From the NCBI GenBank assembly GCA_034722095.1, contig JAYENM010000169.1:1-51508 (forward strand): a stretch of 51,508 nt of DNA, written 5' to 3'. The translations under genes were made by a program, and so were the position numbers. This DNA is from a candidate division WOR-3 bacterium. Its GTDB lineage: Bacteria; Hydrothermota; UBA3073. The notes beneath the pieces are model-generated. The model did no database searches. It saw nothing but the letters and a program-made list of their open reading frames with translations, and had not been told where the DNA came from. This document shows positions 30,106 through 48,434 of the stretch, piece by piece. Position 1 is the stretch's first letter, and each line of letters opens with the position of its first letter.

Positions 30106-30134
30106 TTGACTTTTAACCTATTTAGTGCTATAAT
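30106..30134 (+). promoter_or_regulatory. sigma70-type promoter of the kinase-EBP gene (TTGACT-N17-TATAAT)
   Basis: TTGACT is at 30106-30111, the spacer is exactly 17 nt, and TATAAT is at 30129-30134. The pattern is the same as at 2633-2661. Confidence 0.55.
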
Positions 30135-30286: not shown

Positions 30287-33200
30287 ATGAGCAATAATCG
30301 TTATAAAATACTTAAGAAAGTCGGTTCAGGTGGAATGGGCATTGTCTACAAAGTTCTCGATACACAAACCAACACACACCTCGCCCTCAAAACTTCCTCC
30401 AGCAAGCATATCAAAAATGAATTTCTGACACTCTCAAAACTTCACCATCCAAATATTGTAAAAGTCTACGACTTCGGAGTTATGGAGTGCAATCCGCCTC
30501 AGGCGGATGTTGTTGCAGATACGACCTTATCACAGCATTCCAAACAATACTTCTTCACTATGGAGTACATTGAGGGTAAAAATTTGTATGACCTGTTTAG
30601 AGATAATCTACCCAAGACCAGAGCTGAGTATCAACTTCTTTACTCCATAATACTCCAGATCTGTGATGCACTCAGGCTCATTCATTTTCACAAACTTATC
30701 CATTGTGATATCAAACCCAGCAATATACTGATACAATTCTCCGAAACTCAGGAACCCAGAACTGTTATAACAGACTTCGGACTTATAGAGAAAGAGGCAG
30801 CCCAAAAACTCAAGGGCACTCTCCAATACATCGCCCCTGAAGTTCTCAAGGGCGAGAAAATCGATCAAGGTGCAGACCTCTTCTCCCTGGGTGTGACCAT
30901 CTATCAGGTACTAACACATCATCTTCCCTTTGCGGGTGGTAATGCTCTCACTCTTATCAAGCAACATACAAAAGATAAAATAAAACCACCAAAGGAATTC
31001 AACCCTGCAGTACCGGGAAGGTTAAACGATTGTACCTTGGATCTTTTGCAACCCAAACCTCGAAGAAAAACTAAGTCCATAGATGAACTTAAAAAATTTA
31101 TCCATCAAATCTCAGGAAAATCTCAGTTAGCCACTGTCTTTACATCCCTACTGATAGGCAGGCAAAAGGAACTTTCCATCCTTAAAACTACCTGGCAGGA
31201 AGTTAAAACTAACAAGGGTAGGGCTATCTTACTATACGGTGAAAATGGAATAGGAAAGACGAGACTCTTGCAGGAGTTTAAGCCCTACGCCCAAACCGAA
31301 GGAGCACTGATAAAGGAATTCGATTCGAGAAGAAACATTCTAAAAACTTTTACTGATATTATTGAGCAAAAACCCCTTGGCGGAAAGGAGCTAAGCCTGT
31401 TTGAGAAAATAACAAACAAACTCCTGAACGAAGCAAAACAATCCCCACTCCTTCTCGTAGTCGAAGACCTTCAGTCCCAGGGAGAGACTGCCCTTAACTT
31501 GATGGAGTATCTTATAAGGTCTATTGGATCTGCTCCAATTCTTTTAATCATCACTTCTTCGGATACAAAACTCATTAGCAAAGATGTGCAATCCATAAAT
31601 TACCTTAACCACATCAATCTTATACCCCTCAACCCACATGATACTACCACACTGGTCAAGTCTATGCTCTTAACAGATAACAAGGTGAAAGACATCGGGA
31701 CTCTAATTCATACCCATACCGAAGGAAATCCCTTCCTCATCACGACATTTACACGAAGCCTGGTAGAAAACAAAATTCTTGAAAGAACCAAAGGAAAGTG
31801 GACTCTATCGGGCGATAAGCTAAAAACCTATCAGGCTCCAAAAGACATCAAAGACTTCATAGCCCCTGCCTTAAGAGGATTAAGTGAGGATGAATTTAAT
31901 CTGTTAAAAATAGGGACTCTCCTCAAAAATTACTTTATCCTTCCTGTTCTAAAGGACATAATCAGCGTAAAAATCCATACTCTCTACAGTCTCCAGAAAA
32001 AAGGCCTTATCATAGAAAAACCTGCTGAAAACTACTCTTTTACCCATCAAATGGTCTCCAATGTGATTGAAAAGAATATACCTGTCAGCGAAAGAGTTTC
32101 ACTTCATAGAAAAATAGCCAGCATACTGGAACATCGGTTTCAGCAAAACCTTGAGAGAATAGCCCCTGACCTCACTTATCACTATTCACAGGCAAATGAA
32201 ACTACCAAAGTATACAAATTTGCTCTCCTGTCTGGAGAAAGGGCAAAAAACACATCGGCAAATACGGAAGCAGCGGAATACTTTGAACTTGCACTATCTC
32301 TTGCCGACAAATTGGGTAGAAAAAGAAAGAAATTCACCCTTTATGAAACCCTCGGTGATCTCTATCGCACTATGAGCAAATATCAGGACGCCCTCATAAA
32401 ATATGAATCCGCTCTTCCTCTTGTAACCGATGATTCCTGTACAAGAATTTACAGAAAAATAGGAATGATATACAGAGACCAGCAAAATTATGACAAGGCA
32501 CTGAATTACTTTCAGAAAGGATTTAAGGTGCCCTCCAAAGATGCATCTCAAAAGGTGCTCCTCCTCAGTGACATTGGATGGGTTCATATGTGCCTCGGAG
32601 ACCTTAACAAATCCCTGTCTTACTCTCAAAAAGCAATCAAAATGGCAGAAGAATACAATGACCAATTTGGCTTGAGTTATACCTATAGCACTCTCGGTAC
32701 ACTCTGCTTCCAGAAAAGCAACTACGAAAAAGCAATGCAATATTACAGAAAAACACTAAAGGTCGCTAAGAAAATTAAGAATCAAGACATCATTGAGTCT
32801 ACCTCATACAACCTTGGACAAATCTCGTGGAAAACAGGAAAACCGAAGGAGGCAGAGAACTTCTACAAAAAGGGCCTAAAAATCCAAGAAAAAAAAGGCA
32901 ATCCTCATATTCTTGCCCGATATTATAACGCCCTTGGAATCCTCGCGCAAGAACAGGGAGATTTTGATAACGCCCTGACACATTATACATCAGCCCTTGA
33001 TATATTCAAAAGAATAGGAAACAAACAAAGAATAGCCACAGTCCACATGGCACTGGGTACTATGTACCAGGAGAGAGGCGACTTAGACAATGCAATTGAT
33101 AACTATAAAGCAGCCCTTTTGATATCTCAGGAGACAAAAGACACGCCTCTAATTGCACGGATATACAATAACCTTGGTAATCTCTACAAGGATACAGGGA

Positions 33201-35365
33201 ATTTAACAAAGGCAATCAAAAACCTTGAAAAAGCCCTCAAAATTGAGAAGCAAGGCTCGGATTGGAGAGATACAGCATCTACCCTGCACAATATAGGAAT
33301 AGTCCGTATGCTCCAGGGCAAGATGGAGGATGCTTCCAAATTCCTTCACCAGAGCTTCCATCTTCACCAGGAACAGAAATCAAAGAAAGGAATGGCAGAG
33401 GTATGTCCAACTTTGGCTGAATATTATTTGCTTACAGGCAACATCACTACTGCCGAAGACTACTGCCTGAAAGGGATTAAACTGTGTGAAGAAATCAATG
33501 ACTACCTATATCTCGGTATTACCCAAAGGGTCCTTGGCACTGTATACTCCCGGAAAGCAGAAATGGATAAGGCGCTCATCTCTTACTCCAAATCCATAGA
33601 GACTCTAAAAAAGTTGAAGACAGAACACGAACTCGCCAAAACCCTCCTTATTGCCGGAGAAGAGGTCTTTTCTAATAGAGGAAAAATAGGTAGAAAATTC
33701 TGGCGAGAAGGGCTTCTTGACCAGACCTTAACAAGACTAAAACAAGCAAAGCAAATATTCAAAAACCTGAATGCAAGTGCAGATTTAAAGAGAGTGAATT
33801 CTCTGATTTCGAAACTTGAAAAATATTCCCCCCTCATCCTTGAACCCATTCCTGGAGAAGACAAAAAACTTAAGACCCTTTACAGAATGAGCCAAATAGT
33901 AAACTCAACAATGGAGATAAATGAGCTGCTTGAAAAAATACTGGACCTCACCATTGAAACTATGGAAGCAGAAAGAGGCTTCATACTACTGAGAGAAGGA
34001 AAAGAACTTATGGTAAAAACCGCCAGAAATATGGATAAACAATCAATTGCTGATATGTCAGACTTTTCAAAAACCATAGTGGAGAATGTAGAAAAGAAAG
34101 GCGAGCTGATAATCACTTCCAATGCCCAGACAGAGCCAAGATTTAAAGATAGGAAGAGTATAGCCAAATTCAAACTCCTTTCAATTCTGTGCGTTCCCTT
34201 TAGAATTAAGGACCATGTCGTTGGTGCCATCTATATTGATGACAGAAGAAAAAGAGATGCCTTTACCTCAGAAGACCTTGCATTCCTTCGAGCCTTTTGT
34301 GATCAGGCTGCCATAGCTCTCGAAAACGCCAAGTTAATAGAAGAACTAAGGACCGCCAACAAACTACTTGAACTCGAAAATATTGATATGCAAGACCAGA
34401 TTACTCATCTAAGAACCGCCGTGGAAGAAAGATATAGCTTTGGTAACCTGATAGGAAAAAGTGAACCAATGCAAAAGGTATACGATGCCCTTGAAAAAAT
34501 CATCAAATATGACTCCTCTGTAATAATTGAGGGTGAAACAGGGACAGGTAAGGAGATTGTTGCCAATATCATCCATTATAACGGACCCAGAAAGGACAGG
34601 AATTTTATCGTTGTAAATTCAAGTGCTATACCAGAGGAACTCCTTGAATCAGAACTATTCGGCTATGTAAAAGGAGCATTCACTGGGGCCACCCACGATA
34701 AGCAGGGACTCTTTGAAATAGCAGACGGTGGAACTATCTTCTTCGACGAAATTGCAGAATTAAACCCAAATCTCCAAGTCAAACTACTAAGGGTTCTTCA
34801 GGATGGTGAACTGCGAAGGGTTGGAGCCACAAAAAGTAAAAAGGTTGATGTAAGAGTGATAGCAGCAACCAACAGAGACTTACAAAGGCAAGTAAAACAG
34901 GGAAAATTCAGAGACGACCTCTACTACAGGTTAAATGTAGTGTCAATCAAGATGCCCCCTCTAAGAGAAAGAAAAGAAGATATCCCAGTTCTTGCAGCTT
35001 ATATCCTTCGCAAATTCAGAAAGAAACTCCACAAGAATGTAACCGGGTTTACACCAGAAGCCCTTTATCTCCTTCAGAACTACCAATGGCCAGGTAATGT
35101 AAGAGAACTCGAGAATGTCATAGAAAGGGCTATTGTTATGGCAGAAGGTAAAAAAATCACCGAGAAAGATTTGCCAAAATCATTAACTCAAGGAGAACCT
35201 GGCGAAGAAAAAGAAACCACCCTTCTCTGTTCCCTTGTCGATATAGAAAAGAGATGTATCAAGACAGCTCTTAAAGCCTCAGGAGGTAACAAGAGAGAGG
35301 CAGTAAAGTTACTTGGTATATCAAGACCAACCCTCGATAGAAAGATGAAAAGATACGGTTTATGA
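30287..35365 (+). CDS. 1692-aa fusion: Ser/Thr protein kinase + STAND/AAA_16 P-loop NTPase + long TPR array + GAF + sigma54-interaction AAA+ domain + Fis-type HTH (bacterial enhancer-binding protein)
   Basis: Kinase motifs are GSGGMGIVYKV, LALKT, HCDIKPSNIL (30701-30724), ITDFG and YIAPEVL. The P-loop is LLYGENGIGKTRLL (Walker A at 31238-31261). TPR_12-like repeats span roughly 32.2-33.7 kb (for example YNNLGNLYKDTGNLTKAIKNLEKALKI). GAF covers about 33.9-34.3 kb. The EBP core has GETGTGKE (34532-34555), ESELFG and an intact GAFTGA (34673-34690). The C-terminal HTH is REAVKLLGISRPTLDRKMKRYGL. Confidence 0.85.
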   Translation: MSNNRYKILKKVGSGGMGIVYKVLDTQTNTHLALKTSSSKHIKNEFLTLSKLHHPNIVKVYDFGVMECNPPQADVVADTTLSQHSKQYFFTMEYIEGKNLYDLFRDNLPKTRAEYQLLYSIILQICDALRLIHFHKLIHCDIKPSNILIQFSETQEPRTVITDFGLIEKEAAQKLKGTLQYIAPEVLKGEKIDQGADLFSLGVTIYQVLTHHLPFAGGNALTLIKQHTKDKIKPPKEFNPAVPGRLNDCTLDLLQPKPRRKTKSIDELKKFIHQISGKSQLATVFTSLLIGRQKELSILKTTWQEVKTNKGRAILLYGENGIGKTRLLQEFKPYAQTEGALIKEFDSRRNILKTFTDIIEQKPLGGKELSLFEKITNKLLNEAKQSPLLLVVEDLQSQGETALNLMEYLIRSIGSAPILLIITSSDTKLISKDVQSINYLNHINLIPLNPHDTTTLVKSMLLTDNKVKDIGTLIHTHTEGNPFLITTFTRSLVENKILERTKGKWTLSGDKLKTYQAPKDIKDFIAPALRGLSEDEFNLLKIGTLLKNYFILPVLKDIISVKIHTLYSLQKKGLIIEKPAENYSFTHQMVSNVIEKNIPVSERVSLHRKIASILEHRFQQNLERIAPDLTYHYSQANETTKVYKFALLSGERAKNTSANTEAAEYFELALSLADKLGRKRKKFTLYETLGDLYRTMSKYQDALIKYESALPLVTDDSCTRIYRKIGMIYRDQQNYDKALNYFQKGFKVPSKDASQKVLLLSDIGWVHMCLGDLNKSLSYSQKAIKMAEEYNDQFGLSYTYSTLGTLCFQKSNYEKAMQYYRKTLKVAKKIKNQDIIESTSYNLGQISWKTGKPKEAENFYKKGLKIQEKKGNPHILARYYNALGILAQEQGDFDNALTHYTSALDIFKRIGNKQRIATVHMALGTMYQERGDLDNAIDNYKAALLISQETKDTPLIARIYNNLGNLYKDTGNLTKAIKNLEKALKIEKQGSDWRDTASTLHNIGIVRMLQGKMEDASKFLHQSFHLHQEQKSKKGMAEVCPTLAEYYLLTGNITTAEDYCLKGIKLCEEINDYLYLGITQRVLGTVYSRKAEMDKALISYSKSIETLKKLKTEHELAKTLLIAGEEVFSNRGKIGRKFWREGLLDQTLTRLKQAKQIFKNLNASADLKRVNSLISKLEKYSPLILEPIPGEDKKLKTLYRMSQIVNSTMEINELLEKILDLTIETMEAERGFILLREGKELMVKTARNMDKQSIADMSDFSKTIVENVEKKGELIITSNAQTEPRFKDRKSIAKFKLLSILCVPFRIKDHVVGAIYIDDRRKRDAFTSEDLAFLRAFCDQAAIALENAKLIEELRTANKLLELENIDMQDQITHLRTAVEERYSFGNLIGKSEPMQKVYDALEKIIKYDSSVIIEGETGTGKEIVANIIHYNGPRKDRNFIVVNSSAIPEELLESELFGYVKGAFTGATHDKQGLFEIADGGTIFFDEIAELNPNLQVKLLRVLQDGELRRVGATKSKKVDVRVIAATNRDLQRQVKQGKFRDDLYYRLNVVSIKMPPLRERKEDIPVLAAYILRKFRKKLHKNVTGFTPEALYLLQNYQWPGNVRELENVIERAIVMAEGKKITEKDLPKSLTQGEPGEEKETTLLCSLVDIEKRCIKTALKASGGNKREAVKLLGISRPTLDRKMKRYGL

Positions 35366-35370: not shown

Positions 35371-35387
35371 TGTAACGTTTTGTTACA
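35371..35387. promoter_or_regulatory. candidate enhancer (UAS) palindrome A: TGTAAC-gtttt-GTTACA
   Basis: The extended perfect 9-bp arms are AAGTGTAAC/GTTACACTT (35368-35390), 3 nt after the EBP stop codon. It could double as a weak terminator hairpin because TTTTT follows. Confidence 0.55.
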
Positions 35388-35490: not shown

Positions 35491-35507
35491 TGTAACAAAA
35501 TGTTACA
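35491..35507. promoter_or_regulatory. candidate enhancer (UAS) palindrome B: TGTAAC-aaaat-GTTACA
   Basis: It belongs to a 32-nt unit (GAAATGTAACAAAATGTTACACTTTTTTGAT) that is repeated in tandem. Confidence 0.6.
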
Positions 35508-35522: not shown

Positions 35523-35539
35523 TGTAACAAAATGTTACA
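35523..35539. promoter_or_regulatory. candidate enhancer (UAS) palindrome C: TGTAAC-aaaat-GTTACA
   Basis: It is identical to site B and 32 nt (about 3 helical turns) downstream. It lies 103 nt upstream of the sigma54-type promoter. Confidence 0.6.
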
Positions 35540-35625: not shown

Positions 35626-35642
35626 CTGACACGCTTTTTGCT
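35626..35642 (+). promoter_or_regulatory. sigma54-type (-24/-12) promoter, CTGACACGCTTTTTGCT
   Basis: It matches TGGCACG-N4-TTGCW at every conserved position and in spacing, except that the second G of the -24 GG is A. The identical 17-mer recurs at 42311-42327. It lies the right distance downstream of palindromes next to an EBP gene. Confidence 0.55.
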
Positions 35643-35684
35643 CCTTATAAATAATGAGTAAATAAACTAAAGGAGGTGAGTAGA

Positions 35685-35834
35685 ATGAGTAAATTTCTAA
35701 AAAAGTTGTGCTTGATGGCAATAGCACTCATCCTTGTCCTATTAACAGCCACTATGGCATTTGGAGGTAACATCCACCCACCAATTGACCCTCGACCACC
35801 CACAGTTTATGGTATTGGCGGTAGTGGCAGATAA
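35685..35834 (+). CDS. 49-aa secreted pre-peptide (not in the ORF track): MSKFLKKLCLMAIALILVLLTATMAFGGNIHPPIDPRPPTVYGIGGSGR
   Basis: I translated it by hand. A consensus SD AGGAGGTG (35671-35678) lies 6 nt before the ATG. The peptide has a Lys-rich n-region, a 15-residue hydrophobic core and an A-x-A-like TMA|FG site, then a Pro/Gly-rich tail of about 23 residues. TAA is at 35832-35834 and a strong hairpin follows immediately. Confidence 0.65.
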   Translation: MSKFLKKLCLMAIALILVLLTATMAFGGNIHPPIDPRPPTVYGIGGSGR

Positions 35835-35839
35835 ATCAT

Positions 35840-36597: not shown

Positions 36598-36634
36598 ATT
36601 TTTGACAATACTTCATTTGTAACTGGGGGATATT

Positions 36635-36988: not shown

Positions 36989-37041
36989 CCAAGTCTATAC
37001 GGTATTGCTTTTATAAACTTATATATAACGAATGGGGTGAA

Positions 37042-38256: not shown

Positions 38257-38281
38257 AGAAGCATCGGGAACGATAAATTAC

Positions 38282-38310
38282 TTGACAAGATGGGATTTTT
38301 GTATTACAAT
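38282..38310 (+). promoter_or_regulatory. consensus sigma70 promoter (TTGACA-N17-TACAAT)
   Basis: TTGACA is at 38282-38287, the spacer is 17 nt, and TACAAT is at 38305-38310. A duplicated copy lies at 48435-48463. Confidence 0.6.
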
Positions 38311-38376
38311 AATAGTAGTGATTTTTAAAATAGAAAACTTGCTTCTGATTTCGGGGTTAAAAGTCCGGAGAGGTAT

Positions 38377-38529
38377 ATGAAGGTTACCTTTTACCTTTCA
38401 AATATAAACAGGGAGTGTAATCTTTCCATACCCTCAATCTTTTTAATAGATAAGGTTGGGGGTATTTTTATTTTCTTTTCCACAGGATTCTTTGGATATA
38501 CGAGGTTTGTTTTACAATGCACGAAGTAA
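38377..38529 (+). CDS. candidate 50-codon micro-ORF in the conserved leader (MKVTFYLSNINRECNLSIPSIFLIDKVGGIFIFFSTGFFGYTRFVLQCTK)
   Basis: It is hand-translated and not in the track. GGAGAGG lies just upstream. A homologous 41-codon ORF sits in the same frame at 42392-42517, and the indels between the two are multiples of 3. Coding status is unproven. Confidence 0.3.
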   Translation: MKVTFYLSNINRECNLSIPSIFLIDKVGGIFIFFSTGFFGYTRFVLQCTK

Positions 38530-38711
38530 TAATTCCCAAACTTTTGGTAGTGTGAAAAAGATGTTAGACTTTTTTTCATATTTCCGTCCGAATAAGGATT
38601 TAGATCGTTTATTGGGGAAACTTTCAGAGGAGGTATAATTTGAAATGCGTTGAGGCGGTAGGAAATCGGCTATTTTTTATATTATCTTCAATTAAATAAA
38701 AAGGAGGCTGT

Positions 38712-39311
38712 ATGTCTGGAAAACCCCTTAAATTGATCGCCATATTTTTGTGTCTTTCGTCTCTTTCTTCTGTCCTTTCGGGATTCCCTCGGGTTGCTTT
38801 CGGGGGTCATTATGGAAATGTCTTCTTTAAGAATGGACTAGCAAATAAGGGAGACATTTTTCTTAAGCATTCGTTAAATAACAAATGGTCATGGTGTATC
38901 ACTCTTTTTGACTTCCATTCATATCAAACTTCACGAAGGAATAGCGATTACTATGAAGGAAATATCCTGGAGCCTGAAGAGCTTACCCTTTCTGTAGAGG
39001 AGGTGAGTCTTTATGTTGCTCCCATTTATACTTTTTGGGGAAGGCAAAATATTGAACTGTGTGTAGGTATTAATGGGGGGGTGCTTGTTATGCAAGAGAG
39101 GGGAGCATTGGGAGTATGTTATAATACAGCTGATCTTTACCCTACCGATATTTTTTTGCATACGGCGCCTTTTTTGGGAGCCAATATACGTGTTCCTAAC
39201 ACAACTCTTACCTTATCACTTTGTTATAAATTTCACCATAGCTTTGGATACTATAATCTAAATAATAATTATCTTTCCTTGGTTGGAGGAGTATCATTTG
39301 ATATATTTTAA
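38712..39311 (+). CDS. small outer-membrane beta-barrel-like protein (199 aa)
   Basis: It has a signal peptide (LIAIFLCLSSLSSVLSG), alternating hydrophobic strands and a C-terminal GGVSFDIF ending in Phe. An AAGGAGG SD is present. Confidence 0.45.
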   Translation: MSGKPLKLIAIFLCLSSLSSVLSGFPRVAFGGHYGNVFFKNGLANKGDIFLKHSLNNKWSWCITLFDFHSYQTSRRNSDYYEGNILEPEELTLSVEEVSLYVAPIYTFWGRQNIELCVGINGGVLVMQERGALGVCYNTADLYPTDIFLHTAPFLGANIRVPNTTLTLSLCYKFHHSFGYYNLNNNYLSLVGGVSFDIF

Positions 39312-39330
39312 ATTTTGATGGGAGGGTAAA

Positions 39331-40350
39331 ATGCGTAAGATGTCACACTGTCTTGGGATACTGGTTCTACTAGGAATTCTTGGGTGTCAGTACGAAGATA
39401 ATAAAGAACTCTCATTCTCACCCTATGGAATTGAGACTAACCTAAAAGACTTTTCAGAAAATAGGTGTTACGAAAATGTTAAAATGATTGCCAAGGGTAT
39501 AGCCCAATCTTTCTCCCAAATAGAAATGGCAATAGAAAGTGCTATAGAAAACTCTAGGGATAAGAGAGAGCATAAAGTAGAATTATCGGTTTTACTAAGC
39601 GAGTATGAAGACTCAGAAGGAAGGGCTATTACCATGATTCTGAGCGAGACAATGAGTGTAAAAGAATCTGATCTTTTTAGCTTGTTAGGGTCTATATATC
39701 CTGTGCCTTATATTTTCATACCCCAGGGGTGTAAGAAGTGGAGTAACGACGAACCTCCTGTGATAGCAGTTACTCCACCCTGCGACGATGAGGAAGTAGA
39801 AGGTATAATCGCTTATAGCACTGATGGTGTAGAATTGATACTTCCCAAAGAATCCTCTCCTGAATTTCCAGTCTTGGTTATCACAGCCGAACCACCTTTT
39901 GAAGAAAATGAAGATGAAGAAGAAAAAAGAGACGAAGTCAAGGGGGGTCCTTATAATACTTACTGTCATAAATTCATTCTTTATAAATTTGGGGATCCTT
40001 GGTGGGATTCAAAGCCAGAGATATATACTTTACTTCATTCGTATCATGGATCAGGCTACAGTGAGAAGAGAACCGATTTTCCAGGAGTGGACGAGAAGGG
40101 GAAGACCTATGTATTTGCATGGCCAGGAGAGTATATAGGATACTCTTCTACAGCCTCGGGATTTGTTGATTTGCAAGTATGGGATGATGACTCCTGGTGG
40201 GGAGAACCTTTTGGCAGAGACGATCTTATTCAACATATATACGGTAGTAGTATTAGGGACTTAATAAATTATCAAGGTCCTACAGGGCCTGCAGAAGGAT
40301 GGGTAGGGAGTACTTCGGGGGCGCGGTTATATTTAGTGATAGCCTATTGA
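39331..40350 (+). CDS. lipoprotein of unknown function (339 aa)
   Basis: It has the lipobox LLGILGC, an acidic linker EENEDEEEKRDE and a Trp-rich C-terminal domain (GDPWWDSKPEIY, WDDDSWWGEPFGRDD). No family is recognised. Confidence 0.55.
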   Translation: MRKMSHCLGILVLLGILGCQYEDNKELSFSPYGIETNLKDFSENRCYENVKMIAKGIAQSFSQIEMAIESAIENSRDKREHKVELSVLLSEYEDSEGRAITMILSETMSVKESDLFSLLGSIYPVPYIFIPQGCKKWSNDEPPVIAVTPPCDDEEVEGIIAYSTDGVELILPKESSPEFPVLVITAEPPFEENEDEEEKRDEVKGGPYNTYCHKFILYKFGDPWWDSKPEIYTLLHSYHGSGYSEKRTDFPGVDEKGKTYVFAWPGEYIGYSSTASGFVDLQVWDDDSWWGEPFGRDDLIQHIYGSSIRDLINYQGPTGPAEGWVGSTSGARLYLVIAY

Positions 40351-40493
40351 CCAAAGAACAGGATTTATCTATAGTTTTGGCGGGAGATTTGGGAAGGTCT
40401 TTTATTAACCCGGAAGGTTAAACCGGGGTATCCACTCTGGAATACCACGTCTCGCTTTTAATAAGCGCTAAATATTTTCCAAATTTGTTTTGA

Positions 40494-40643
40494 AAAAGGT
40501 TTAAAAAACTCGTAGATGGTGAAGTTAAGGCAGGTTATTATGATGTGAGGCTGGATGGCAGAAGTCTCCCATCAGGCATCTATTTCGCAAGGCTTAAAAC
40601 TGATAGTTATGAGGAGACGAAGAAGATAGTATTGATAAAATGA
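40494..40643 (+). pseudogene. orphan relic of a T9SS C-terminal sorting domain
   Basis: The open frame has no start codon: KRFKKLVDGEVKAGYYDVRLDGRSLPSGIYFARLKTDSYEETKKIVLIK*. It is colinear with the C25 gene tail KMLVDDRLEAGYHIIKLDSENLPSGIYFARLVTNNYEATKKLVLMK. Its stop overlaps the ATG of the next gene. Confidence 0.75.
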
Positions 40644-41608
40644 AGAGAATTCTTATAGGTCTCATAGTTATACTGCCCTGTGTGGTCTACTCATCCGATG
40701 ATGCGAGTTTTTTGATAGTAACCCCGGGGGGAAGAGCTGCGGGGCTATCATCGGCATTTATGGCAATCTCGGACGATATCTACGCATCTTACTACAATGA
40801 CGCCGGATTAGGATTCCAGAACGGCTTGTCTTTTGGTGGTACTGGTGGATGGTGCCCATATTCCCTTATTTTTGATGGAGAGGAAAGGTATGATTTCTGG
40901 GGAGTCTCCTTCCCTCTCACAATAATCGGCGGAAGAATAGGCATTAGCGCTATTTATAACCATAAAGATGGCGGCACAGATATCTCGCACAAGCTCTCCT
41001 ATGGGAGAAGGATTGGCAGAGACCTTTCCATTGGCCTTGGGGTGAGACTGCTTTCTATCAGTCCTATGTTCCCTATGTGGGATATAAGGATGGATAATTA
41101 CTATTCTGCGGTTGATATTTCAATGCTATATAGGAAAGAAAACTTAAGTATCGGTTGCGCCATCCAAAATATAGGACCTTCTATCACATACAGTTATACC
41201 TTATTTGAAGATACTACATTTGAAGGAAGATTTGAAGCACCTTTGCCCTCTCTTTTACGAATGGGTCTCGGTTATAAATCCCCAAATCTTGGAGACCACA
41301 GCATTCTGGGGACAGCGGACATCGTTAGAAATTTTACAGAGTCGATCAATGATGAGAATTTCTTCTATTTTTCTTTGGGGATTGAATACTCCTATAAAGA
41401 TTTCCTATTTCTTCGTGGTGGCTGCCTATTGGATATAAATAAAAATACAGAAAGGACTGGTTTTAGCTATGGTATAGGGATCAAATTGGAAGAAGGATTT
41501 TACATCGACTTAGGGGTTGAGCCAGAATATCCGCTCCAAACTAATAGGGTTAAACTCTCCTTCAGGGGGCAATATCCACCAAACTCATGGACACATACGA
41601 AAAGATAA
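40640..41608 (+). CDS. second, divergent PorV/PorQ-like outer-membrane beta-barrel protein
   Basis: After the signal peptide comes FLIVTPGGRAAGLSSAFMAISDDIYASYYNDAGLGF. This parallels the PorV/PorQ N-terminal motif seen in the 20037-21047 product. Confidence 0.5.
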   Translation: MKRILIGLIVILPCVVYSSDDASFLIVTPGGRAAGLSSAFMAISDDIYASYYNDAGLGFQNGLSFGGTGGWCPYSLIFDGEERYDFWGVSFPLTIIGGRIGISAIYNHKDGGTDISHKLSYGRRIGRDLSIGLGVRLLSISPMFPMWDIRMDNYYSAVDISMLYRKENLSIGCAIQNIGPSITYSYTLFEDTTFEGRFEAPLPSLLRMGLGYKSPNLGDHSILGTADIVRNFTESINDENFFYFSLGIEYSYKDFLFLRGGCLLDINKNTERTGFSYGIGIKLEEGFYIDLGVEPEYPLQTNRVKLSFRGQYPPNSWTHTKR

Positions 41609-42055
41609 AGAAATTGCCAATAATGAGGTAGAACTGAAATAAAATATTACCTCGCCTAGCTATCAGGATGTCTGTTGAATATGGGGACGGTTCTTTTTTT
41701 CTTGACACCTTGCATTTATGGTAGCACTATTGCATAGTGCTCCATTTATTGATAACATTTTGTTCTTATCTATGGATCTGATAGATTTATAGCTGATATG
41801 GAGAGAAAATACGAAGTCAAGAAATTCCCTGCCCCGTGGAGTTAGTTTTGCTACTCCACAGGGCAGGCCAAAGAAGATATGAAAAACAGTCCGAAAAAGA
41901 GAACCGTTCCCATTACAGTCCACACCCATTACCCATTACATTCAAAATAGGGGTAACTCCCCCAAGTGGAGCCTCTAAAACCTTTATGGACATTGGGCTT
42001 AGAAATATTAAACAGTCATAACTTGCGAAAATTTGATAAACCAGTAGTTTAAAAG

Positions 42056-42072
42056 TGTAAAATTTCTTTACA
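42056..42072. promoter_or_regulatory. variant enhancer palindrome A': TGTAAA-atttc-TTTACA
   Basis: The extended arms are AAGTGTAAA/TTTACACTT (42053-42075). Its relative position is the same as site A of the first module. Confidence 0.5.
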
Positions 42073-42175
42073 CTTTTCGGGGTGTTATGGCTAACCTTTC
42101 CTTCAAGGGGATTTCTCCCAAGTCCTTAAAAAATCAAAACTTGTAGAAATTCGACAAAATTGGCAGTCGGAGGAG

Positions 42176-42192
42176 TGTAAAGTTTCTTTACA
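42176..42192. promoter_or_regulatory. variant enhancer palindrome B': TGTAAA-gtttc-TTTACA
   Basis: It lies 120 nt after A', exactly as B lies after A in the first module. Confidence 0.55.
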
Positions 42193-42207
42193 CTTCCATC
42201 AAGAAAA

Positions 42208-42224
42208 TGTAAAGATTCTTTACC
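42208..42224. promoter_or_regulatory. variant enhancer palindrome C': TGTAAA-gattc-TTTACC
   Basis: It lies 32 nt after B' and 103 nt before the promoter. These are the same spacings as in the first module. Confidence 0.5.
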
Positions 42225-42310
42225 ATTTTTAGGTCGCCATGACTGCCCCCTTTAGAGGAATTTTTTTCAAATCCCTGTCAGTTCACGCATTACGTAGATT
42301 CTCATTCTTT

Positions 42311-42327
42311 CTGACACGCTTTTTGCT
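42311..42327 (+). promoter_or_regulatory. second sigma54-type promoter, CTGACACGCTTTTTGCT
   Basis: The 17-mer is identical to 35626-35642. Confidence 0.55.
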
Positions 42328-42391
42328 TTTATAATATAGTGAAAGGTTGATTTCTGATTATGGGAATAAGGGTCCGAGGGAAGTGTTTTAT

Positions 42392-42517
42392 ATGAAATGT
42401 GTCCCTTACTTCCAACACAGCGAAGAAGATAATACCTTTACGCCCTCAATCCTGTTAATACATATGACTGGGAGTATTTTTATTTTCTTCTATGCGGGGT
42501 TTACAAGGTACGTCTAG
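42392..42517 (+). CDS. candidate 41-codon micro-ORF in the conserved leader (MKCVPYFQHSEEDNTFTPSILLIHMTGSIFIFFYAGFTRYV)
   Basis: It is hand-translated and not in the track. It is homologous to 38377-38529, sharing PSI(F/L)LI...G(G/S)IFIFF. Coding status is unproven. Confidence 0.3.
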   Translation: MKCVPYFQHSEEDNTFTPSILLIHMTGSIFIFFYAGFTRYV

Positions 42518-42520
42518 AAT

Positions 42521-42550
42521 TGCCCTGCGTGTCTGGTGATGCGCAGGGCA
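42521..42550 (+). other. 9-bp GC-rich hairpin between the micro-ORF and the BNR gene (possible attenuator/terminator)
   Basis: TGCCCTGCG (42521-42529) pairs with CGCAGGGCA (42542-42550). It starts 4 nt after the micro-ORF stop and is followed by TGATGGGTTGTTTAT. Confidence 0.4.
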
Positions 42551-42589
42551 TGATGGGTTGTTTATGAAGTAGGCATCCTGGAGGTTTTT

Positions 42590-44869
42590 ATGTATCTTTT
42601 TATTATAATTCAGTTATTCCTTTCACCAGTCTGGGAGACACACGGACCCTATGGAGGAGAGACTATATGCATTGCCATAGACCCAAATAAAACTCTCTGT
42701 ATGTATGCGGGGACAGGGAATCCTGAATTAATAACAACGAATGGAGACGGTGTTTATGTAAGCACAGACGGTGGAGAAAACTGGAACCATACCTCACTCG
42801 GCTCTACTTTTGTTTGGGATATTGCAGTTGATTCTCATGGAGAAGTGTATGCTGCTACTCGTGGGTATGGAATTTTCAAGAGCACAGACAGAGGCACCAC
42901 CTGGAATTCAATAAATAACGGACTGTCATGTCTATATATATCTGATATTGCTATTGAGCCTCTCAATGACAGCGTTGTCTATGTAGGGACCGGAGACAAG
43001 TTTTATGGTAGTGTGTGGGATTGGTCAATGGATGGTATATACAAATCTACAGATAGAGGAGAAACCTGGAGTAGACTGGGACTGGACGGCACGACTGTAT
43101 CTTCCATTGTGGTGCATCCTGTGGCGCCAGAAACTCTCTATGCAGCGGTATATGATGTACCATGGGATAATACATCAAGTGAAGTAGGGATTTACAAGTC
43201 CTGCGATTACGGGGTTACCTGGATGTACAAAGCAGATATAGCTGCGAATGATTTAGTTATAGATCTGGTAAATCCCAATACAATTTACGCTGCCCCCAAG
43301 TGGGATTGGGATCACTTCTGGAAAAGCACGGATGGTGGAGAAACCTGGACATACTGTTATATGGGTATTTTTACGAATGAAATACGGACAATAGCGATTG
43401 AGCCATTCAACGACAGCATTATCTATATGGGTTGTGCCTCATATCCCACAATGGATGAAAAATTCGGTGGTATTTATAAATCTATAGATGCAGGGGATAC
43501 ATGGAGCGAAGTGATGGTAGGTATGCCAGACGAGCCTGTACATTCTATTGTTATTGGTATTGACAATCCCGATAAGGTCTATGCTACATGCAGTGGTCCT
43601 GGGGTGTATAAAAGTGTTGACAAGGGAGAAACCTGGGCATGGTCGTCTAATGGTATGAGGCTGCAGATAGTGACAGATTTGAGTTCGGCAAACGAAGACA
43701 TCTTTGCTGCGACAAGGTCCGGCGTATATAAAAGAGAGAGCTCAAGTGAAGTGTGGCATAATCGGAGCTCTGGGATAAGACAGGTTAGGACTATGTGCAT
43801 CGCTGCCGCGCCGTCTGCACCTGATACTATTTACCTCGGCACATTTGTCGGTGCGGGACCAACGCCATCTTATAGAAGTTTTGATGGTGGGGAGACTTGG
43901 ACCGGGTGTGCAGGAGGAGGAATTTGTCATATCCAGGTTAATCCTCTCAATCCCAGTGTATACTATGCTGTAGAGAAATTCAATTTTAGAAAAGTTTACA
44001 AATCAACTGATGCAGGCTCCACTGTGACCACTACCTTGGATACCACTAGTCCCGGATGTGTAGCAATAGATCCTGTTGATACAAACATAGTCTATGTAGG
44101 TGGCGGTTCTGGCAGCGCATGGGTTCTCAAAACTGTTGAGGGGGGCACAAGTTGGATAAGTATCTCCCAAGGGTTGGATTCAGGATTTGTCTGCGATATA
44201 GAGTTAGATAATTTCAACGAGGACATCCTCTATGCCGTTGTGAATGCCGATCTCTTTGGATGGGAAGGTAATGGAAAACTCTTCAGGTATAACGGAGATT
44301 TATGGGAAAGAGTAGGGGTTGATCTCCCAGAATTGCCATTCTCCTCCCTTAAGGTGGATCCAGTACTTCAGAGTGTTCTGTATATTGGCACCTATGGAGG
44401 AGGTGTATACAGAAGCATTGATGGAGGGATAGTGTGGAATGAGTTGAACGAGGGCCTCGGGAACCTCTTTGTAAACTGTATCATGTTAGACCCTCTCGAC
44501 CACACGAAGATATATGCAGGAACTAATGCCGGTGTATATTCAATCACCTCTCCCCCCGGTATTGAGGAAGAGAGTGCTATTACTCTCTCTCTTCTCACGG
44601 TCTCTCCAAATCCCTTCAGCACAACTACCGCTATCACGCTATCAGACTATCAGGCTAACGCTTCACGCTTTACGCCTTACACCTTACGCATCTACGACCT
44701 CACAGGCCGCCTCGTCAAACGATTTACGATTTTCGATTCACGGCTTACGAGTATAGTCTGGAATGGAAGAGATGACTCTGGCAATTCTTTACCTCCAGGG
44801 GTCTATTTCGCAAGACTTGAATCTGGAAAGACTGAATATAAAGCTGAGAAGATTGTAAAATTGAGGTAA
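42590..44869 (+). CDS. BNR/Asp-box (sortilin/Ycf48-like) beta-propeller protein with T9SS sorting domain
   Basis: At least 11 Asp-boxes are present: STDGGENW, STDRGTTW, STDRGETW, SCDYGVTW, STDGGETW, SIDAGDTW, SVDKGETW, SFDGGETW, STDAGSTV, TVEGGTSW and SIDGGIVW. The tail is VSPNPFSTTTAI...IYDLTGRLVKRF...GVYFARLESG...KIVKLR. The N-terminus MYLFIIIQLFLSP lacks a basic n-region. Confidence 0.8.
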   Translation: MYLFIIIQLFLSPVWETHGPYGGETICIAIDPNKTLCMYAGTGNPELITTNGDGVYVSTDGGENWNHTSLGSTFVWDIAVDSHGEVYAATRGYGIFKSTDRGTTWNSINNGLSCLYISDIAIEPLNDSVVYVGTGDKFYGSVWDWSMDGIYKSTDRGETWSRLGLDGTTVSSIVVHPVAPETLYAAVYDVPWDNTSSEVGIYKSCDYGVTWMYKADIAANDLVIDLVNPNTIYAAPKWDWDHFWKSTDGGETWTYCYMGIFTNEIRTIAIEPFNDSIIYMGCASYPTMDEKFGGIYKSIDAGDTWSEVMVGMPDEPVHSIVIGIDNPDKVYATCSGPGVYKSVDKGETWAWSSNGMRLQIVTDLSSANEDIFAATRSGVYKRESSSEVWHNRSSGIRQVRTMCIAAAPSAPDTIYLGTFVGAGPTPSYRSFDGGETWTGCAGGGICHIQVNPLNPSVYYAVEKFNFRKVYKSTDAGSTVTTTLDTTSPGCVAIDPVDTNIVYVGGGSGSAWVLKTVEGGTSWISISQGLDSGFVCDIELDNFNEDILYAVVNADLFGWEGNGKLFRYNGDLWERVGVDLPELPFSSLKVDPVLQSVLYIGTYGGGVYRSIDGGIVWNELNEGLGNLFVNCIMLDPLDHTKIYAGTNAGVYSITSPPGIEEESAITLSLLTVSPNPFSTTTAITLSDYQANASRFTPYTLRIYDLTGRLVKRFTIFDSRLTSIVWNGRDDSGNSLPPGVYFARLESGKTEYKAEKIVKLR

Positions 44870-44890
44870 ACAAAATCAGAGGAGGTTTAT

Positions 44891-47800
44891 ATGCTTAAGA
44901 AAATAGCAAGTATTATACTGGCGATAGGTTTTGCTCATATCGTCTTTGCCGATGTAACTCATAATGTCTATTTCTCATCATCGGATTTGACCTTCAGACA
45001 GGAGAAGGGATACGACATCGTGGAGTTAAAGGGATGCAACCTGATGGATGTGGTTGGCGAGCCCATGCTTTCTGTAAGATATATGAACCTCATTATCCCA
45101 GCGGGAAATAAGGTATCCAGAATAGAGTTTCCATTAGCCAATTCACAAAACATAGGAACCTACAACATCTATCCAGCGCAGCCACCAATCCCTGTAAGTA
45201 GTAGTGAACCGCCTGAATGGGTGGAACCAGACCCTCTTGTGTATAGTTCTGACGAACCCTATCCAGGCAAACTCGCAGAGGTTGTCCATGAGGGATATTT
45301 TAACGGGAATAAGATTGTGATGCTTGCGGTCTATCCACTCCAATGGATGCCAAGCACTGGAGAGCTCGTGTTGTATGACCACATACAGTTAAGACTCGTG
45401 TTGGAATCATCATCCGAAACTCCAGTCTATCCACAGATTATGACCGAGCAGAGTTACAAACTCTATAAATCTGCGTTGAGTTCGTTGATTGCAAATGACA
45501 AAGACAAGAGTGCCTATGGATATGAACCTACTGTTGTGACTCCACAGTCTGCTCCTGCTGAGTTTATACTACCTGCATCTTCTACAGAGATAATAGAGTA
45601 TATGATAATTACCCCCAATGCACTCACCTCATCTTTTAACTCTTTTGTGGAATGGTTATGGAAGAAGGGGATAAGAGCAGGGATTATCACTGTAGAGGAT
45701 ATACTTGCTTCATATCCTGGGGTTGACGATGCCCAGAAGGTGAAGAGATGCATCTGGAAGTGGTGGCAATTTAACTCTCTCACTTATGTGCTTCTCGCTG
45801 GAGATGATGGTATTGTACCTTTTAGATACGGTTGGGCCAGGAATAATCTAAATTTTCCACCACAGACTCGCGTAGATTCATTTTATATCATTCCTACTGA
45901 TCTTTACTTCTCGGATCTTTCTGGCAACTGGGATGTTGATGGAGACAATCGCTGGGGTGAGCCAGAAGATAGTATTGATATATATCCTGAGGTATATGTA
46001 GGGAGAGTGTTGGTACGGAACATGGAAGAAGTTAACAACTGGTTACAGCGGGTGTTGAATTACGAGCGAAATCCAGGAAATGCGTCTCTTATGAAAGATG
46101 TTATGTGGAGTTATCAAGAATATGACCCAGATACATCACATATGGGAGGAAATTTCATCAACTTTCAATTTCTTGTTAATCAGGCTATAGCGCATTTTCC
46201 TGAAGACTATACCCATTATCATTATTATGCTATGAGCTCCACTGAGAATCTATCTGGTCTGAATGAGGGATACGGGCAGGTATGTCTTTACGCCCACGGT
46301 TGGCCAGATAGATGGACAACGAGAACCTGGCCTGTTAGTTGGGTGTTTTCTTGGCCATCCGCTGGTGGCGGAGACCTGTACCATCTCTCTAATCCAAACA
46401 AGTATGGTGTTGTGTATTCAATTAGTTGTATGAATGCAATGTTTGATAAGATCTTGGAGGATGTTTGGCATTGCGAGGATACTACAATTGCAGATGGATT
46501 TACAGATGCTTATACAAATGGAGGCGAAGCCGCCTTTCTTGGAAACAGCAGATACGGATGGTCCCATACCTCTCCTTCTCTTCACCGGTGTTTTCTGGAT
46601 GTTCTATTCAATTCAAGCGACCTGTCTTCCAAGGTTGGATATGCTGAGGGAATATCCAAAACTCTTGGTGGGTCTAGGTATGTTTGGTATTCTCACAACC
46701 TGTTTGGCTCTCCGGAGACTCCTGTCTGGACTGATGTGCCACCACCTTTGACAGCAAGCCATCCATCCCGATTATATGTGGATCCAGAGATTACTCTGCT
46801 CCTCACTGTAACGGTTACATCTAATGGAAGTCCTGTAGAGGATGCTCTTGTTTGCCTATACAAGCCTTCAGATGATCCAGTAATTTACAAAAGAGGCTAT
46901 ACCGATGCAAATGGTGAGGTCACTTTTGATCTCCGTATTCGAAACACGGGATATCTATATGTTACTGCGACCAAACACAATTTCAAACCTTACGAAGGTA
47001 GAATTCTGTGCACCTACCCTCCCTGTCCCTTTCTCTATACCTATAATGGTTCAGAATTCATAGAGGATAACAATATCCTTTCAGGTTCTGGAACTGTAGA
47101 AGATTGGTATAAGCTGAGGGAGAAACCCCTTAAAGATGAAAATAGATATAGGTTACAGATAAAGGAGAATAACGATGAGCATTCATTCTTTGACAGGGTG
47201 AGACTTTATGCTATTGACCATCCAGACTCTGTTGAAGTATTCGTGACACAGGATGGAGAGATTGTCTCCGTTTCTATGATGTCCGCTTCTCAATCAGTTA
47301 TTGGGGAGGATGGAGTTGATTATACTACAGTGCTTCTTGACAGAGATAGTGTATGGGTTGAGGCAAATGAGGTTGAAAAGATCACCGCTGAATTTGGAGG
47401 AACTAATGGAGGAGACTACGTCATACTCGCACCACCAGGGCCGAAGCCAAGACTTATGGTTGAAGAAGCAAATGGTTCAAGTTTTGAAACTGTCGGTTCC
47501 ATTCGTGGAAGAGAGAACCCATCCTATGAGGTGCTTCCTCTTACAGTTTCATCTCCCGAGGAGGTGAGCCTGAGATTCACATTCACTGATGTCTCCCAGA
47601 GACTTGACTATATACGGTTTGGGAAGAGAAACAATGCTCCATATCATATAAAACCCTGTCCACTTGTGGCTGCTACCCACTCTGACATTGGTTCTGTCAA
47701 GCAGAAACTACTTATTGATGATGAGAACTATGCAGAACTTCTTCCCTGTGATACGATAACACTTGAGTTTGCAGTTGTTGATATAGAACCTGGATGGGTG

Positions 47801-48142
47801 AGAGATTTTGTGTTTGTATCAAATGGATATTATGTAACAGAAGGCAAAGGCGGTTCACAGACTGCATATAGCAGTATTCCTTTGGTTCATTCTCTATCAC
47901 TATATCCAAATCCAGCAAAGAATGATATGAATATCAGATTTGGTATACCGAGAGAAGAGAAGGTCTCTCTTAAAATTTATGATGTATCAGGCAGAGAGGT
48001 AAAGATGCTTGTAGATGACAGACTTGAAGCAGGTTATCATATTATAAAATTGGATAGTGAGAATCTTCCCTCTGGCATCTACTTCGCAAGGCTTGTGACC
48101 AATAACTATGAGGCGACAAAGAAGCTCGTGCTGATGAAGTAG
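44891..48142 (+). CDS. peptidase C25 (gingipain-like cysteine protease) with propeptide, unknown C-terminal module and T9SS sorting domain
   Basis: It has a signal peptide and a C25 propeptide-like N-terminus (FRQEKGYDIVELKGC...GEPMLSVRYMNLIIP). Other markers are YMIITPNALTSSFNSFVEWLWKKGIRAGIITVEDI, YVLLAGDDGIVPFRY, FSDLSGNWDVDGDNRWGE, the His region VCLYAHGWPDRW and the Cys region VVYSISCMNAMFD. The tail is YPNPAKNDMNIRF...IYDVSGREVKML...GIYFARLVTN...KLVLMK. Confidence 0.8.
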   Translation: MLKKIASIILAIGFAHIVFADVTHNVYFSSSDLTFRQEKGYDIVELKGCNLMDVVGEPMLSVRYMNLIIPAGNKVSRIEFPLANSQNIGTYNIYPAQPPIPVSSSEPPEWVEPDPLVYSSDEPYPGKLAEVVHEGYFNGNKIVMLAVYPLQWMPSTGELVLYDHIQLRLVLESSSETPVYPQIMTEQSYKLYKSALSSLIANDKDKSAYGYEPTVVTPQSAPAEFILPASSTEIIEYMIITPNALTSSFNSFVEWLWKKGIRAGIITVEDILASYPGVDDAQKVKRCIWKWWQFNSLTYVLLAGDDGIVPFRYGWARNNLNFPPQTRVDSFYIIPTDLYFSDLSGNWDVDGDNRWGEPEDSIDIYPEVYVGRVLVRNMEEVNNWLQRVLNYERNPGNASLMKDVMWSYQEYDPDTSHMGGNFINFQFLVNQAIAHFPEDYTHYHYYAMSSTENLSGLNEGYGQVCLYAHGWPDRWTTRTWPVSWVFSWPSAGGGDLYHLSNPNKYGVVYSISCMNAMFDKILEDVWHCEDTTIADGFTDAYTNGGEAAFLGNSRYGWSHTSPSLHRCFLDVLFNSSDLSSKVGYAEGISKTLGGSRYVWYSHNLFGSPETPVWTDVPPPLTASHPSRLYVDPEITLLLTVTVTSNGSPVEDALVCLYKPSDDPVIYKRGYTDANGEVTFDLRIRNTGYLYVTATKHNFKPYEGRILCTYPPCPFLYTYNGSEFIEDNNILSGSGTVEDWYKLREKPLKDENRYRLQIKENNDEHSFFDRVRLYAIDHPDSVEVFVTQDGEIVSVSMMSASQSVIGEDGVDYTTVLLDRDSVWVEANEVEKITAEFGGTNGGDYVILAPPGPKPRLMVEEANGSSFETVGSIRGRENPSYEVLPLTVSSPEEVSLRFTFTDVSQRLDYIRFGKRNNAPYHIKPCPLVAATHSDIGSVKQKLLIDDENYAELLPCDTITLEFAVVDIEPGWVRDFVFVSNGYYVTEGKGGSQTAYSSIPLVHSLSLYPNPAKNDMNIRFGIPREEKVSLKIYDVSGREVKMLVDDRLEAGYHIIKLDSENLPSGIYFARLVTNNYEATKKLVLMK

Positions 48143-48424: not shown

Positions 48425-48434
48425 GATGAATTAC

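Follow-up and report, generated by a model that had tools for sequence, protein, structure and literature searches.

The NtrC-type enhancer architecture is familiar from sigma-54 promoters such as glnAp2, and the GG of the -24 element of these promoters is nearly invariant. It is likewise a general concept that a transcription factor and its sites can co-evolve through a tolerant intermediate. Here we describe two enhancer-promoter modules and the gene of an enhancer-binding protein (EBP) in a contig of 51,508 nt, analysed in its entirety and referred to below as the window, from a metagenome-assembled genome (MAG) annotated as 'candidate division WOR-3'. Judging by a scan for similar cassettes and by the C-termini of EBPs, the nearest genomes are Stahlbacteria MAGs. 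Like NtrC-type enhancers, the modules contain tandem 17-bp dyads about three helical turns apart (31-33 bp), some 100-150 bp upstream of a -24/-12 promoter, and as in the NtrC system the EBP is an AAA+ protein with a GAFTGA loop and a C-terminal HTH_8 domain. Unlike NtrC, the window EBP has Ser/Thr-kinase, STAND, TPR and GAF domains as its input and no receiver domain. Its enhancers further differ in having a third, distal site at variable distance (30-201 bp from the middle site, B), in the repetition of the whole cassette two to three or more times per genome, and in a -24 element that reads TGACAC or TGTCAC, not TGGCAC.

The combination of an EBP, its upstream sites and a -24/-12 promoter is well known from textbooks; what goes beyond it is a covariation between one EBP residue and one base pair of the sites in the poorly understood HTH_8 class of helix-turn-helix (HTH) domains, which gives a testable specificity rule for sigma-54 activators. 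Our favoured reading, to which we assign a probability of about 0.6, is that one EBP with Arg at position 1685 (Arg-type) would control one regulon whose sites have been turned over incompletely, probably leaving two affinity classes. As in the general co-evolution concept, a single substitution in the recognition helix would go together with one base pair replaced regulon-wide, and related genomes show the states before, during and after such rewiring: all sites old in CSMAG_2245, mixed in the window, in locus L001 and in CSMAG_552, and all new in UBA3073 (loci from other genomes are cited by L numbers). Unlike in the general concept, turnover was seemingly helped by copying or gene conversion of whole cassettes of about 300 nt. 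A broader statement, that a specificity switch from Lys to Arg took place on at least three occasions, each time together with replacement of the base pair at +/-3 (A:T to C:G) across the regulon, that the window is at an intermediate stage with one activator and two affinity classes, and that the sigma-54 promoters lack the -24 GG, is tentative and in our view falls somewhat short of even odds. The regulon would take in an operon for a small secreted peptide, surface proteins and peptidases secreted by the type IX route, and an AraC/radical-SAM locus; with it, a regulatory circuit can for the first time be outlined for Stahlbacteria.

Two cassettes and one activator gene

The EBP gene and the elements of the two modules are as follows.

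30287..35365, + strand: EBP gene, 1692 amino acids, MEA3431992.1 (translation, Pfam scan, exact look-up)
35339..35341, + strand: codon AGA of Arg1685 in the recognition helix ISRPTLD-R-KMKRYGL (orthologue comparison, HTH alignment)
35371..35387, + strand: module 1 site A, TGTAACGTTTTGTTACA, 6 nt past the EBP stop codon (pattern scan)
35491..35507, + strand: module 1 site B, TGTAACAAAATGTTACA (pattern scan)
35523..35539, + strand: module 1 site C, TGTAACAAAATGTTACA (pattern scan)
35626..35642, + strand: module 1 promoter of -24/-12 type, CTGACACGCTTTTTGCT (pattern scan, cassette alignment)
41949..42052, + strand: degenerate version of the spacer unit normally found ahead of site B, AACTTGCGAAAATTTGATAAAC (alignment)
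42056..42072, + strand: module 2 site A, TGTAAAATTTCTTTACA, palindrome extending to 42051-42077 (pattern scan)
42112..42159, + strand: conserved inter-site blocks TTTCTCCCAAGTCCTTAAAAA and AACTTGTAGAAATTCGACAAAA, common to most cassettes in several genomes
42176..42192, + strand: module 2 site B, TGTAAAGTTTCTTTACA (pattern scan)
42208..42224, + strand: module 2 site C, TGTAAAGATTCTTTACC, inner bases A/T, last (outer) base C a mismatch (pattern scan)
42311..42327, + strand: module 2 promoter of -24/-12 type, CTGACACGCTTTTTGCT, start predicted near 42338 (pattern scan, cassette alignment)

The EBP combines Pkinase, AAA_16 (STAND), TPR, GAF, Sigma54_activat and HTH_8 domains (Pfam scan). The GAFTGA loop of its Sigma54_activat AAA+ domain (PF00158, E = 5e-72) is legible in the translation, and the C-terminal Fis-type HTH (PF02954, HTH_8, E = 6e-14) aligns to the structures of ZraR, Fis and NtrC. 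Two colinear modules of about 290 nt, with three palindromes each, lie at 35367-35645 (module 1) and 42052-42330 (module 2). All sites of module 1 are exact TGTAAC-N5-GTTACA (3 observed versus 0.08 expected; at least 3 in 0 of 100 shuffles), and its sites B and C belong to 31-nt units that are 100% identical. Exact TGTAAA-N5-TTTACA is found at sites A and B of module 2. All six half-sites are therefore of the TGTAAC type (C-type) in module 1 and of the TGTAAA type (A-type) in module 2, with the one outer mismatch in site C. The original prediction, that the inner bases of all three palindromes of module 2 had been switched together, is thus borne out for the inner bases, while the palindrome at 42208 departs from it at an outer base. 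The core GTAA-N7-TTAC occurs six times in 51.5 kb, always as one of the module sites (0.74 expected; at least six in 0 of 100 shuffles); being confined to the two modules, it yields no palindrome upstream of the EBP gene in the window scan.

The other claims about the layout of the modules have largely held. Start-to-start spacings are the same in both, 120 nt from A to B, 32 nt from B to C and 103 nt from C to the promoter. An ungapped alignment of the flanks shows 76% identity (35367-35495 versus 42052-42180) and 70% identity (35578-35657 versus 42263-42342), with the previously named blocks present, and identity of the promoters extends to the 18-mer TCTGACACGCTTTTTGCT at 35625-35642 and 42310-42327. 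These promoters are the only exact matches to TGRCAC-N5-TTGC in the window. A further degenerate unit had been placed upstream of module 2; it exists as a diverged spacer copy (41949-42052) that has no palindrome of its own, nor does a palindrome lie upstream of it. In module 1, the palindrome of site A extends to 35367-35391 and is predicted to form a hairpin of -10.6 kcal/mol followed by UUUUU, and could at the same time weakly terminate transcription of the EBP gene. Between site C and the promoter (35581-35596) lies an additional inverted repeat, TTGTAAG-TC-CTTACAA, as it does in L003 and L015; it has GTAA/TTAC half-sites, but with a 4-nt gap between the TGTAA and TTACA arms, and is missing from module 2. 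We regard it as well supported that both modules are cassettes of the adjacent EBP, each consisting of an enhancer (upstream activating sequence, UAS) and a -24/-12 promoter; sigma-54 dependence of these promoters and binding of the EBP to both site types are what we infer from the sequences.

Other cassettes were collected with the pattern GTAA-N7-TTAC, N16-18, GTAA-N7-TTAC, N72-102, TGNCA-N6-TTGC, which is blind to site type. The scan returned 16 loci in species-representative genomes and 15 in metagenomes, nearly all from Stahlbacteria/WOR-3, with two to three cassettes in several of these MAGs. Spacing is 31-33 bp between sites B and C and 30-201 bp between A and B; the promoter lies 87-89 bp beyond C almost throughout, and 77 bp beyond it in the divergent cassette of L007. 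The multiple alignment revealed an extended palindrome, AAAGTGTAA.N5.TTACACTTT, the trailing T-run of which mirrors the leading A-run. Behind the cassettes lie, among others, the peptide operon and genes for BNR-repeat proteins, for FG-GAP proteins that end in a type IX sorting tail, for response regulators, and for an AraC-type regulator accompanied by a radical-SAM enzyme. Comparative work has proposed that a theme of sigma-54 control is centred on the cell exterior (PMC3162934), and the genes behind the cassettes fit this theme.

Site types, orthologous loci and the recognition helix

The EBP has 13 orthologues; nine orthologue clusters came up at 51-91% identity, and their contigs were fetched. 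All proteins that have the EBP architecture and at least 51% identity occur in a conserved EBP-peptide synteny, and they look like orthologues, one per genome. The order that is kept comprises the EBP, a cassette, a small peptide of about 49 residues and a 117-residue open reading frame (ORF); in L009, a 261-residue secreted protein takes the place of the small peptide. The cassette directly follows the EBP stop codon in the orthologues for which downstream sequence is available, except in L005, which has only degenerate A-like sites and different downstream genes, the synteny not being kept. EBP-adjacent sites are all C-type in L003, L015, L016 and L025 and all A-type in L004, L007, L012, L027 and L028; L011 has one A-type site before the contig ends, and sites of L009 are mixed with respect to T and C.

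Most informative is L001, whose EBP is 91% identical to that of the window and has the same recognition helix. A single module of this locus combines TGTAAC at site A with TGTAAA at B and C. The 5' segment of this module is 91% identical to module 1 of the window. In the 3' segment, identity drops to 61% with module 1, compared with 80% for module 2 and 86% for the cassette beside the EBP gene of L004. By these identities the L001 cassette is a true chimera. Because TGTAAA is the type that adjoins most orthologues, and because of the L001 chimera, we consider TGTAAA to be the older, cognate class of this EBP family. It would thus be ancestral and not the sign of a foreign regulator, the direction of change being our reconstruction. 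Module 2 of the window resembles the EBP-adjacent cassette regarded as ancestral.

Among the C-termini of EBPs from all loci, one position of the recognition helix SRPTLD[R/K]K varies between orthologues, residue 1685. It is Arg in the window, L001, L003/L016/L033, L015, L025/L036 (UBA3073) and L009/L010/L021, and Lys in L004, L005, L007, L011, L012, L027 and L028. The inner base of the sites follows this residue: in Lys-1685 genomes the 42 half-sites have 41 A, 1 T and no C, and in Arg-1685 genomes 53 C, 16 A and 3 T were counted. The position is never G, and paired half-sites almost always agree, the asymmetric exceptions being TGTAAT..GTTACA in L009 and L025 and TGTAAA..ATTACA in L023. Only one of 332 columns in an alignment of the C-terminal 320 residues separates C-site from A-site genomes, and this is R/K1685. 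In the full-length alignment of ten proteins, 10 of 1705 columns separate the groups, and 1685 alone is uniform in both. The Arg group is polyphyletic: L004, which has Lys and is 83% identical, falls between the window clade and UBA3073 (75%), which has Arg, and the most distant orthologue, L009 (51%), is again Arg. The polyphyly implies that residue 1685 changed at least three times. Site type is not exclusive to EBP type: Arg-type EBPs coexist with A-type sites, in L001 within a single cassette. Taken together, these comparisons support the view that the inner base pair is under constraint and linked to specificity. The original prediction, which had taken the change of the inner base for a divergence in DNA specificity, was right to this extent; what it did not foresee is that the diverging partner appears to be an orthologue co-evolving with its sites.

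The covariation is structurally plausible by analogy with Fis. In the HMMER alignment to Fis 55-97, the recognition helix matches residue by residue, R1680 corresponding to Fis R85 and R/K1685 to Fis K90. The palindrome has G at -7 and C at +7, and its variable pair lies at +/-3, the centre-proximal end of the half-site, which is the end that the residue equivalent to K90 would reach. When Fis is bound to DNA, R85 makes contact with the G at +/-7, whereas K90 extends over the central minor groove to the phosphates and is most important when G/C pairs are close to the centre (3IV5; PMC3711457). Arg1685 could either read the G of the C:G pair directly or compensate for a wider minor groove. Unlike Fis, a loosely specific nucleoid protein whose K90 makes phosphate contacts only, the EBP has sharply defined sites. 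A further parallel is offered by RocR-like loci of Bacillaceae (L020, L029, L032, L039, Caldifermentibacillus-like), where a -24/-12 promoter is preceded at 85 bp by tandem TGTAAA-N5-TTTACA palindromes with a spacing of 33 bp. The adjacent EBP has the helix ISRVTLYNKMKKYGL, with Asn at the position equivalent to 1685; here, too, A-type sites go with a residue other than Arg, because TGTAAA is paired with Asn. These loci differ from the window in their canonical promoter, TGGCAT-N5-TTGC, and in EBP architecture. The gene downstream in them resembles RocA, going by its N-terminus as read by eye. Residue 1685 presumably also corresponds to R461 of enteric NtrC, which that protein requires to bind DNA.

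Distribution of site types over whole genomes follows the same lines. In UBA3073, which has an Arg-type EBP, every cassette is C-type, including one with the same leader as module 2 of the window, and because this same-leader cassette is C-type, the module 2 locus would belong to the same regulon elsewhere. CSMAG_552 is mixed, with C-type sites next to the EBP (L015) and A-type sites in L013; related samples contain A-type cassettes with intact palindromes (L038, L041, L043), whose AraC-type product is nearly identical to that of L013. Cassettes of one genome are 84-92% identical over about 340 nt in UBA3073 (L018, L025) and in CSMAG_2245 (L023, L024, L027), whereas orthologous cassettes of different genomes are about 60% identical. 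Because of this difference, conversion probably spread by copying or gene conversion of whole cassettes, that is, by concerted evolution.

These observations can be combined into the following scenario. In a cassette of about 300 nt, made up of the distal palindrome A, a proximal pair B and C separated by 31-33 bp (some three helical turns) and a promoter 87-89 bp further on, the palindromes would be bound by the dimeric Fis-type HTH of the kinase-STAND-TPR-GAF EBP, its conserved Arg equivalent to Fis R85 reading the G at +/-7. The AAA+ ring would then assemble and activate sigma-54 RNA polymerase at the promoter. The ancestral site would have been (A)AAGTGTAAA-N5-TTTACACTT(T), paired with Lys1685. 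In three lineages, that of the window among them, residue 1685 would have become Arg and the sites TGTAAC..GTTACA, with C:G at +/-3. In the window, the shift would be complete at the EBP-adjacent cassette of the small-peptide operon and not at module 2, in front of the genes for a BNR protein and a C25 peptidase; the same Arg-type EBP would most likely serve both cassettes, probably with different affinity.

Promoter type and competing explanations

The promoter sequence CTGACACGCTTTTTGCT fits the sigma-54 consensus TGGCACG-N4-TTGCW at 11 of 12 positions, the exception being the second G, which is A. The -24 element thus reads TGACAC (35627-35632 and 42312-42317) instead of TGGCAC and lacks the GG of sigma-54 promoters. 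The -12 element is present in both modules as CACGC-TTT-TTGCT, and the spacing of TTGCT is kept in L007, L009 and L012. Enhancer and EBP are likewise in place: tandem palindromes precede the promoter by 87-89 bp, and the EBP gene is adjacent. In the distinct module promoters that match TGNCA[CT]-N5-TTGC[AT] across 412 kb of loci from Stahlbacteria/WOR-3, the -24 base in question is A in 22, T in 4 and G in none; six further matches with C all lie inside EBP coding sequence. Cassettes of this uncultured lineage read TGACAC or TGTCAC(T) throughout and so have A or T at an almost invariant G of sigma-54 promoters, whereas non-WOR-3 matches of the same scan are canonical. Recognition of the -24 element by the sigma-54 of this lineage may be altered, as promoters without the -24 GG would imply if they are indeed sigma-54 promoters, or the oddity may be a single inherited peculiarity of the cassette, since the cassettes are homologous copies. 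Six-frame translations of the window and all fetched loci yielded no RpoN-box motif, and a literature search found no paper on sigma-54 in Stahlbacteria/WOR-3.

Several observations weigh against a single Arg-type EBP with an incompletely converted regulon. The window and CSMAG_552 keep two distinct cassette classes at 58-63% identity (63% in the window) where others homogenise to 84-92%, which could reflect functional separation, and full C-type conversion in UBA3073 suggests that Arg1685 discriminates, A-type sites perhaps being poor targets. Fis K90 contacts phosphates and not bases, so read-out may be indirect; homogenisation of cassettes within genomes lowers the number of independent observations behind the covariation; and the -24 element is without its canonical GG. 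Our view is also limited to one contig of the MAG, a point in favour of what the original prediction had proposed, namely a duplicated EBP/UAS pair insulating two regulons, the Arg-type EBP acting on TGTAAC sites and an unseen paralogous EBP encoded elsewhere in the genome on TGTAAA sites. Uniform site type within each window module, the constrained and specificity-linked inner base, the stable maintenance of two diverged classes in the window and CSMAG_552, and the persistence of intact A-type cassettes in related strains or samples (L013, L038, L041, L043) would all agree with such insulation. Even so, we find it unlikely. A missing cognate EBP is not called for where TGTAAA adjoins most orthologues, and insulation is at odds with L001, in which both site types precede one promoter and the EBP has the recognition helix of the window protein. 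Lys-type genomes and UBA3073 use one site type and apparently one EBP for all their cassettes, and proteins of the EBP architecture at 51% identity or more look like orthologues, one per genome. Nor was a second EBP with the SRPTLD[KR]K helix found beyond the nine orthologues among 240 retrieved proteins, although 120 of these came from a second search, with the AAA+/HTH part of the EBP, that was dominated by generic NtrC-type regulators, did not return the orthologues and is uninformative on paralogues. One EBP tolerating both sites, mentioned in the prediction as an alternative, fits the evidence best.

The remaining explanations concern the sites and promoters themselves. If the inner base were neutral and the core simply TGTAA-N7-TTACA, uniformity would come from cassette duplication or gene conversion and the match with R/K1685 would be a coincidence. 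This agrees with the higher identity of cassettes within genomes (84-92%) than of orthologous cassettes between them (about 60%), with the 100% identical 31-nt repeats at sites B and C of module 1 and with the asymmetric half-sites of L009, L025 and L023. It is nevertheless quite unlikely, as copying of whole cassettes does not make paired half-sites agree, the association is found in three lineages separately, and exactly one of 332 columns is singled out, and that in the recognition helix. Free variation of the inner positions, which the prediction had named as speaking against itself, is not what we see: they are almost always symmetric, never G, and never C in the 42 half-sites of Lys genomes. 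That the promoters are of the sigma-70 type (CTGACA, 17-18 nt, TATAGT or AATAAT), the palindromes acting by another route, is suggested by a consensus scan that scores both at 10/12, by TATAGT at 17-nt spacing in many cassettes, a fit that extends to close relatives, and by the absent -24 GG. We consider it very unlikely, since CACG-N4-TTGCT (CACG/CAT-N4-5-TTGCT in L007 and L009) is kept in the distant orthologous cassettes of L007, L009 and L012 without a -10 hexamer at usable spacing, and the remainder of the promoter fits TGGCACG-N4-TTGCW at 11/12. The sites, moreover, are located about 110-150 and 270 bp ahead of the start and beside the gene of an EBP of the GAFTGA type, a class not known to act on any sigma factor but sigma-54, and the helix of this EBP covaries with the sites. 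Finally, each palindrome is followed by a T-run, folds with a predicted -5.9 to -12.9 kcal/mol (z-scores -1.7 to -3.7) and tolerates T..G asymmetries that would form wobble pairs in RNA, and site A of module 1 is only 6 nt past the EBP stop codon, as might be expected of RNA hairpins or intrinsic terminators. That they are such elements and not protein sites is hardly credible: the T-run mirrors an upstream A-run and hence belongs to the extended palindrome, the same sites occur in L007 in a divergent intergenic region upstream of both genes, their tandem arrangement has helical-repeat spacing and a fixed distance to the promoter, and neither the terminator scan nor Rfam picks them up.

Neighbouring genes and minor features of the contig

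The remaining features around the EBP gene and the modules are the following.

30106..30134, + strand: sigma-70-like promoter of the EBP gene, TTGACT-N17-TATAAT (read from sequence)
35685..35834, + strand: ORF of 49 amino acids with a signal peptide and a Pro-rich tail (PPIDPRPPTVYGIGGSGR) (translation, orthologue loci)
42338..42589, + strand: conserved non-coding leader of about 250 nt with hairpin GCCCTGCG..CGCAGGGC (comparison with L018)
42590..48142, + strand: genes behind module 2, for a 759-residue BNR/sortilin-repeat protein and a 1083-residue C25 (gingipain-like) peptidase (Pfam scan)

The 49-residue ORF is the first gene behind module 1 and is followed by the 117-residue ORF (36635-36988), which has no Pfam match, and by a gene for a GAF/PAS protein (37042-38256). 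A TPR-containing regulator beside a small secreted peptide resembles peptide signalling of the RRNPP type; that the EBP and the 49-residue peptide might communicate in this way is only an idea. Between the small-peptide ORF and the 117-residue ORF lies a PD-(D/E)XK (PDDEXK_3) gene (36208-36597), which appears to be an insertion into the small-peptide operon, because the corresponding position is empty in L001, L003 and L004. Both products encoded behind module 2, the BNR/sortilin-repeat protein and the C25 peptidase, have type IX secretion C-terminal sorting domains (Pfam scan). The 3' part of the peptidase gene (47099-47993) is repeated at the contig end (50755-51508) at 73-96% identity, which suggests a paralogous gene for type IX secretion cargo running off the contig.

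The leader of module 2 is conserved in UBA3073 (L018), and a partial copy of it is present at 38431-38477. An ORF within it, MKCVPY.. (42392-42517), was rejected as coding: differences from L018 are distributed 12/12/10 over codon positions 1/2/3, and because there is no codon-position bias, conservation would be at the DNA or RNA level. An Rfam scan of 35000-43000 gave no match to the leader, the only hit being IsrM at chance level (19 bits versus a gathering score of 376).

A further repeat, 87-98% identical between 38147-38362 and 48264-48515, comprises the 3' end of the GAF/PAS gene and a near-consensus sigma-70 promoter, TTGACA-N17-TACAAT (38282-38310); the copy at 48264-48515 follows the C25 peptidase gene and has no intact GAF/PAS gene ahead of it. 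A gene cluster that spans some 22 kb (8154-29951) separates a ROK gene from the EBP gene; among its products are GH94, glucoamylase-like proteins, LacI, a PorV-like protein, an ABC sugar transporter and a TonB-dependent receptor. The EBP gene of L001/L002 comes immediately after ROK. Arrays with an 8-nt period (GGTAATTA / AGTTATTA / GGTCATTA) occupy two intergenic regions (2668-2779 and 7056-7103), and short GC-rich hairpin repeats resembling repetitive extragenic palindromic (REP) elements lie between housekeeping genes at 2831-2911, 4267-4302 and 5659-5691. One of these, CGCCTGCCTGACGCCTGCCTGCCGGTAGGCAGG, is present in two copies that are 100% identical, and a similar motif occurs in the leader of L018.

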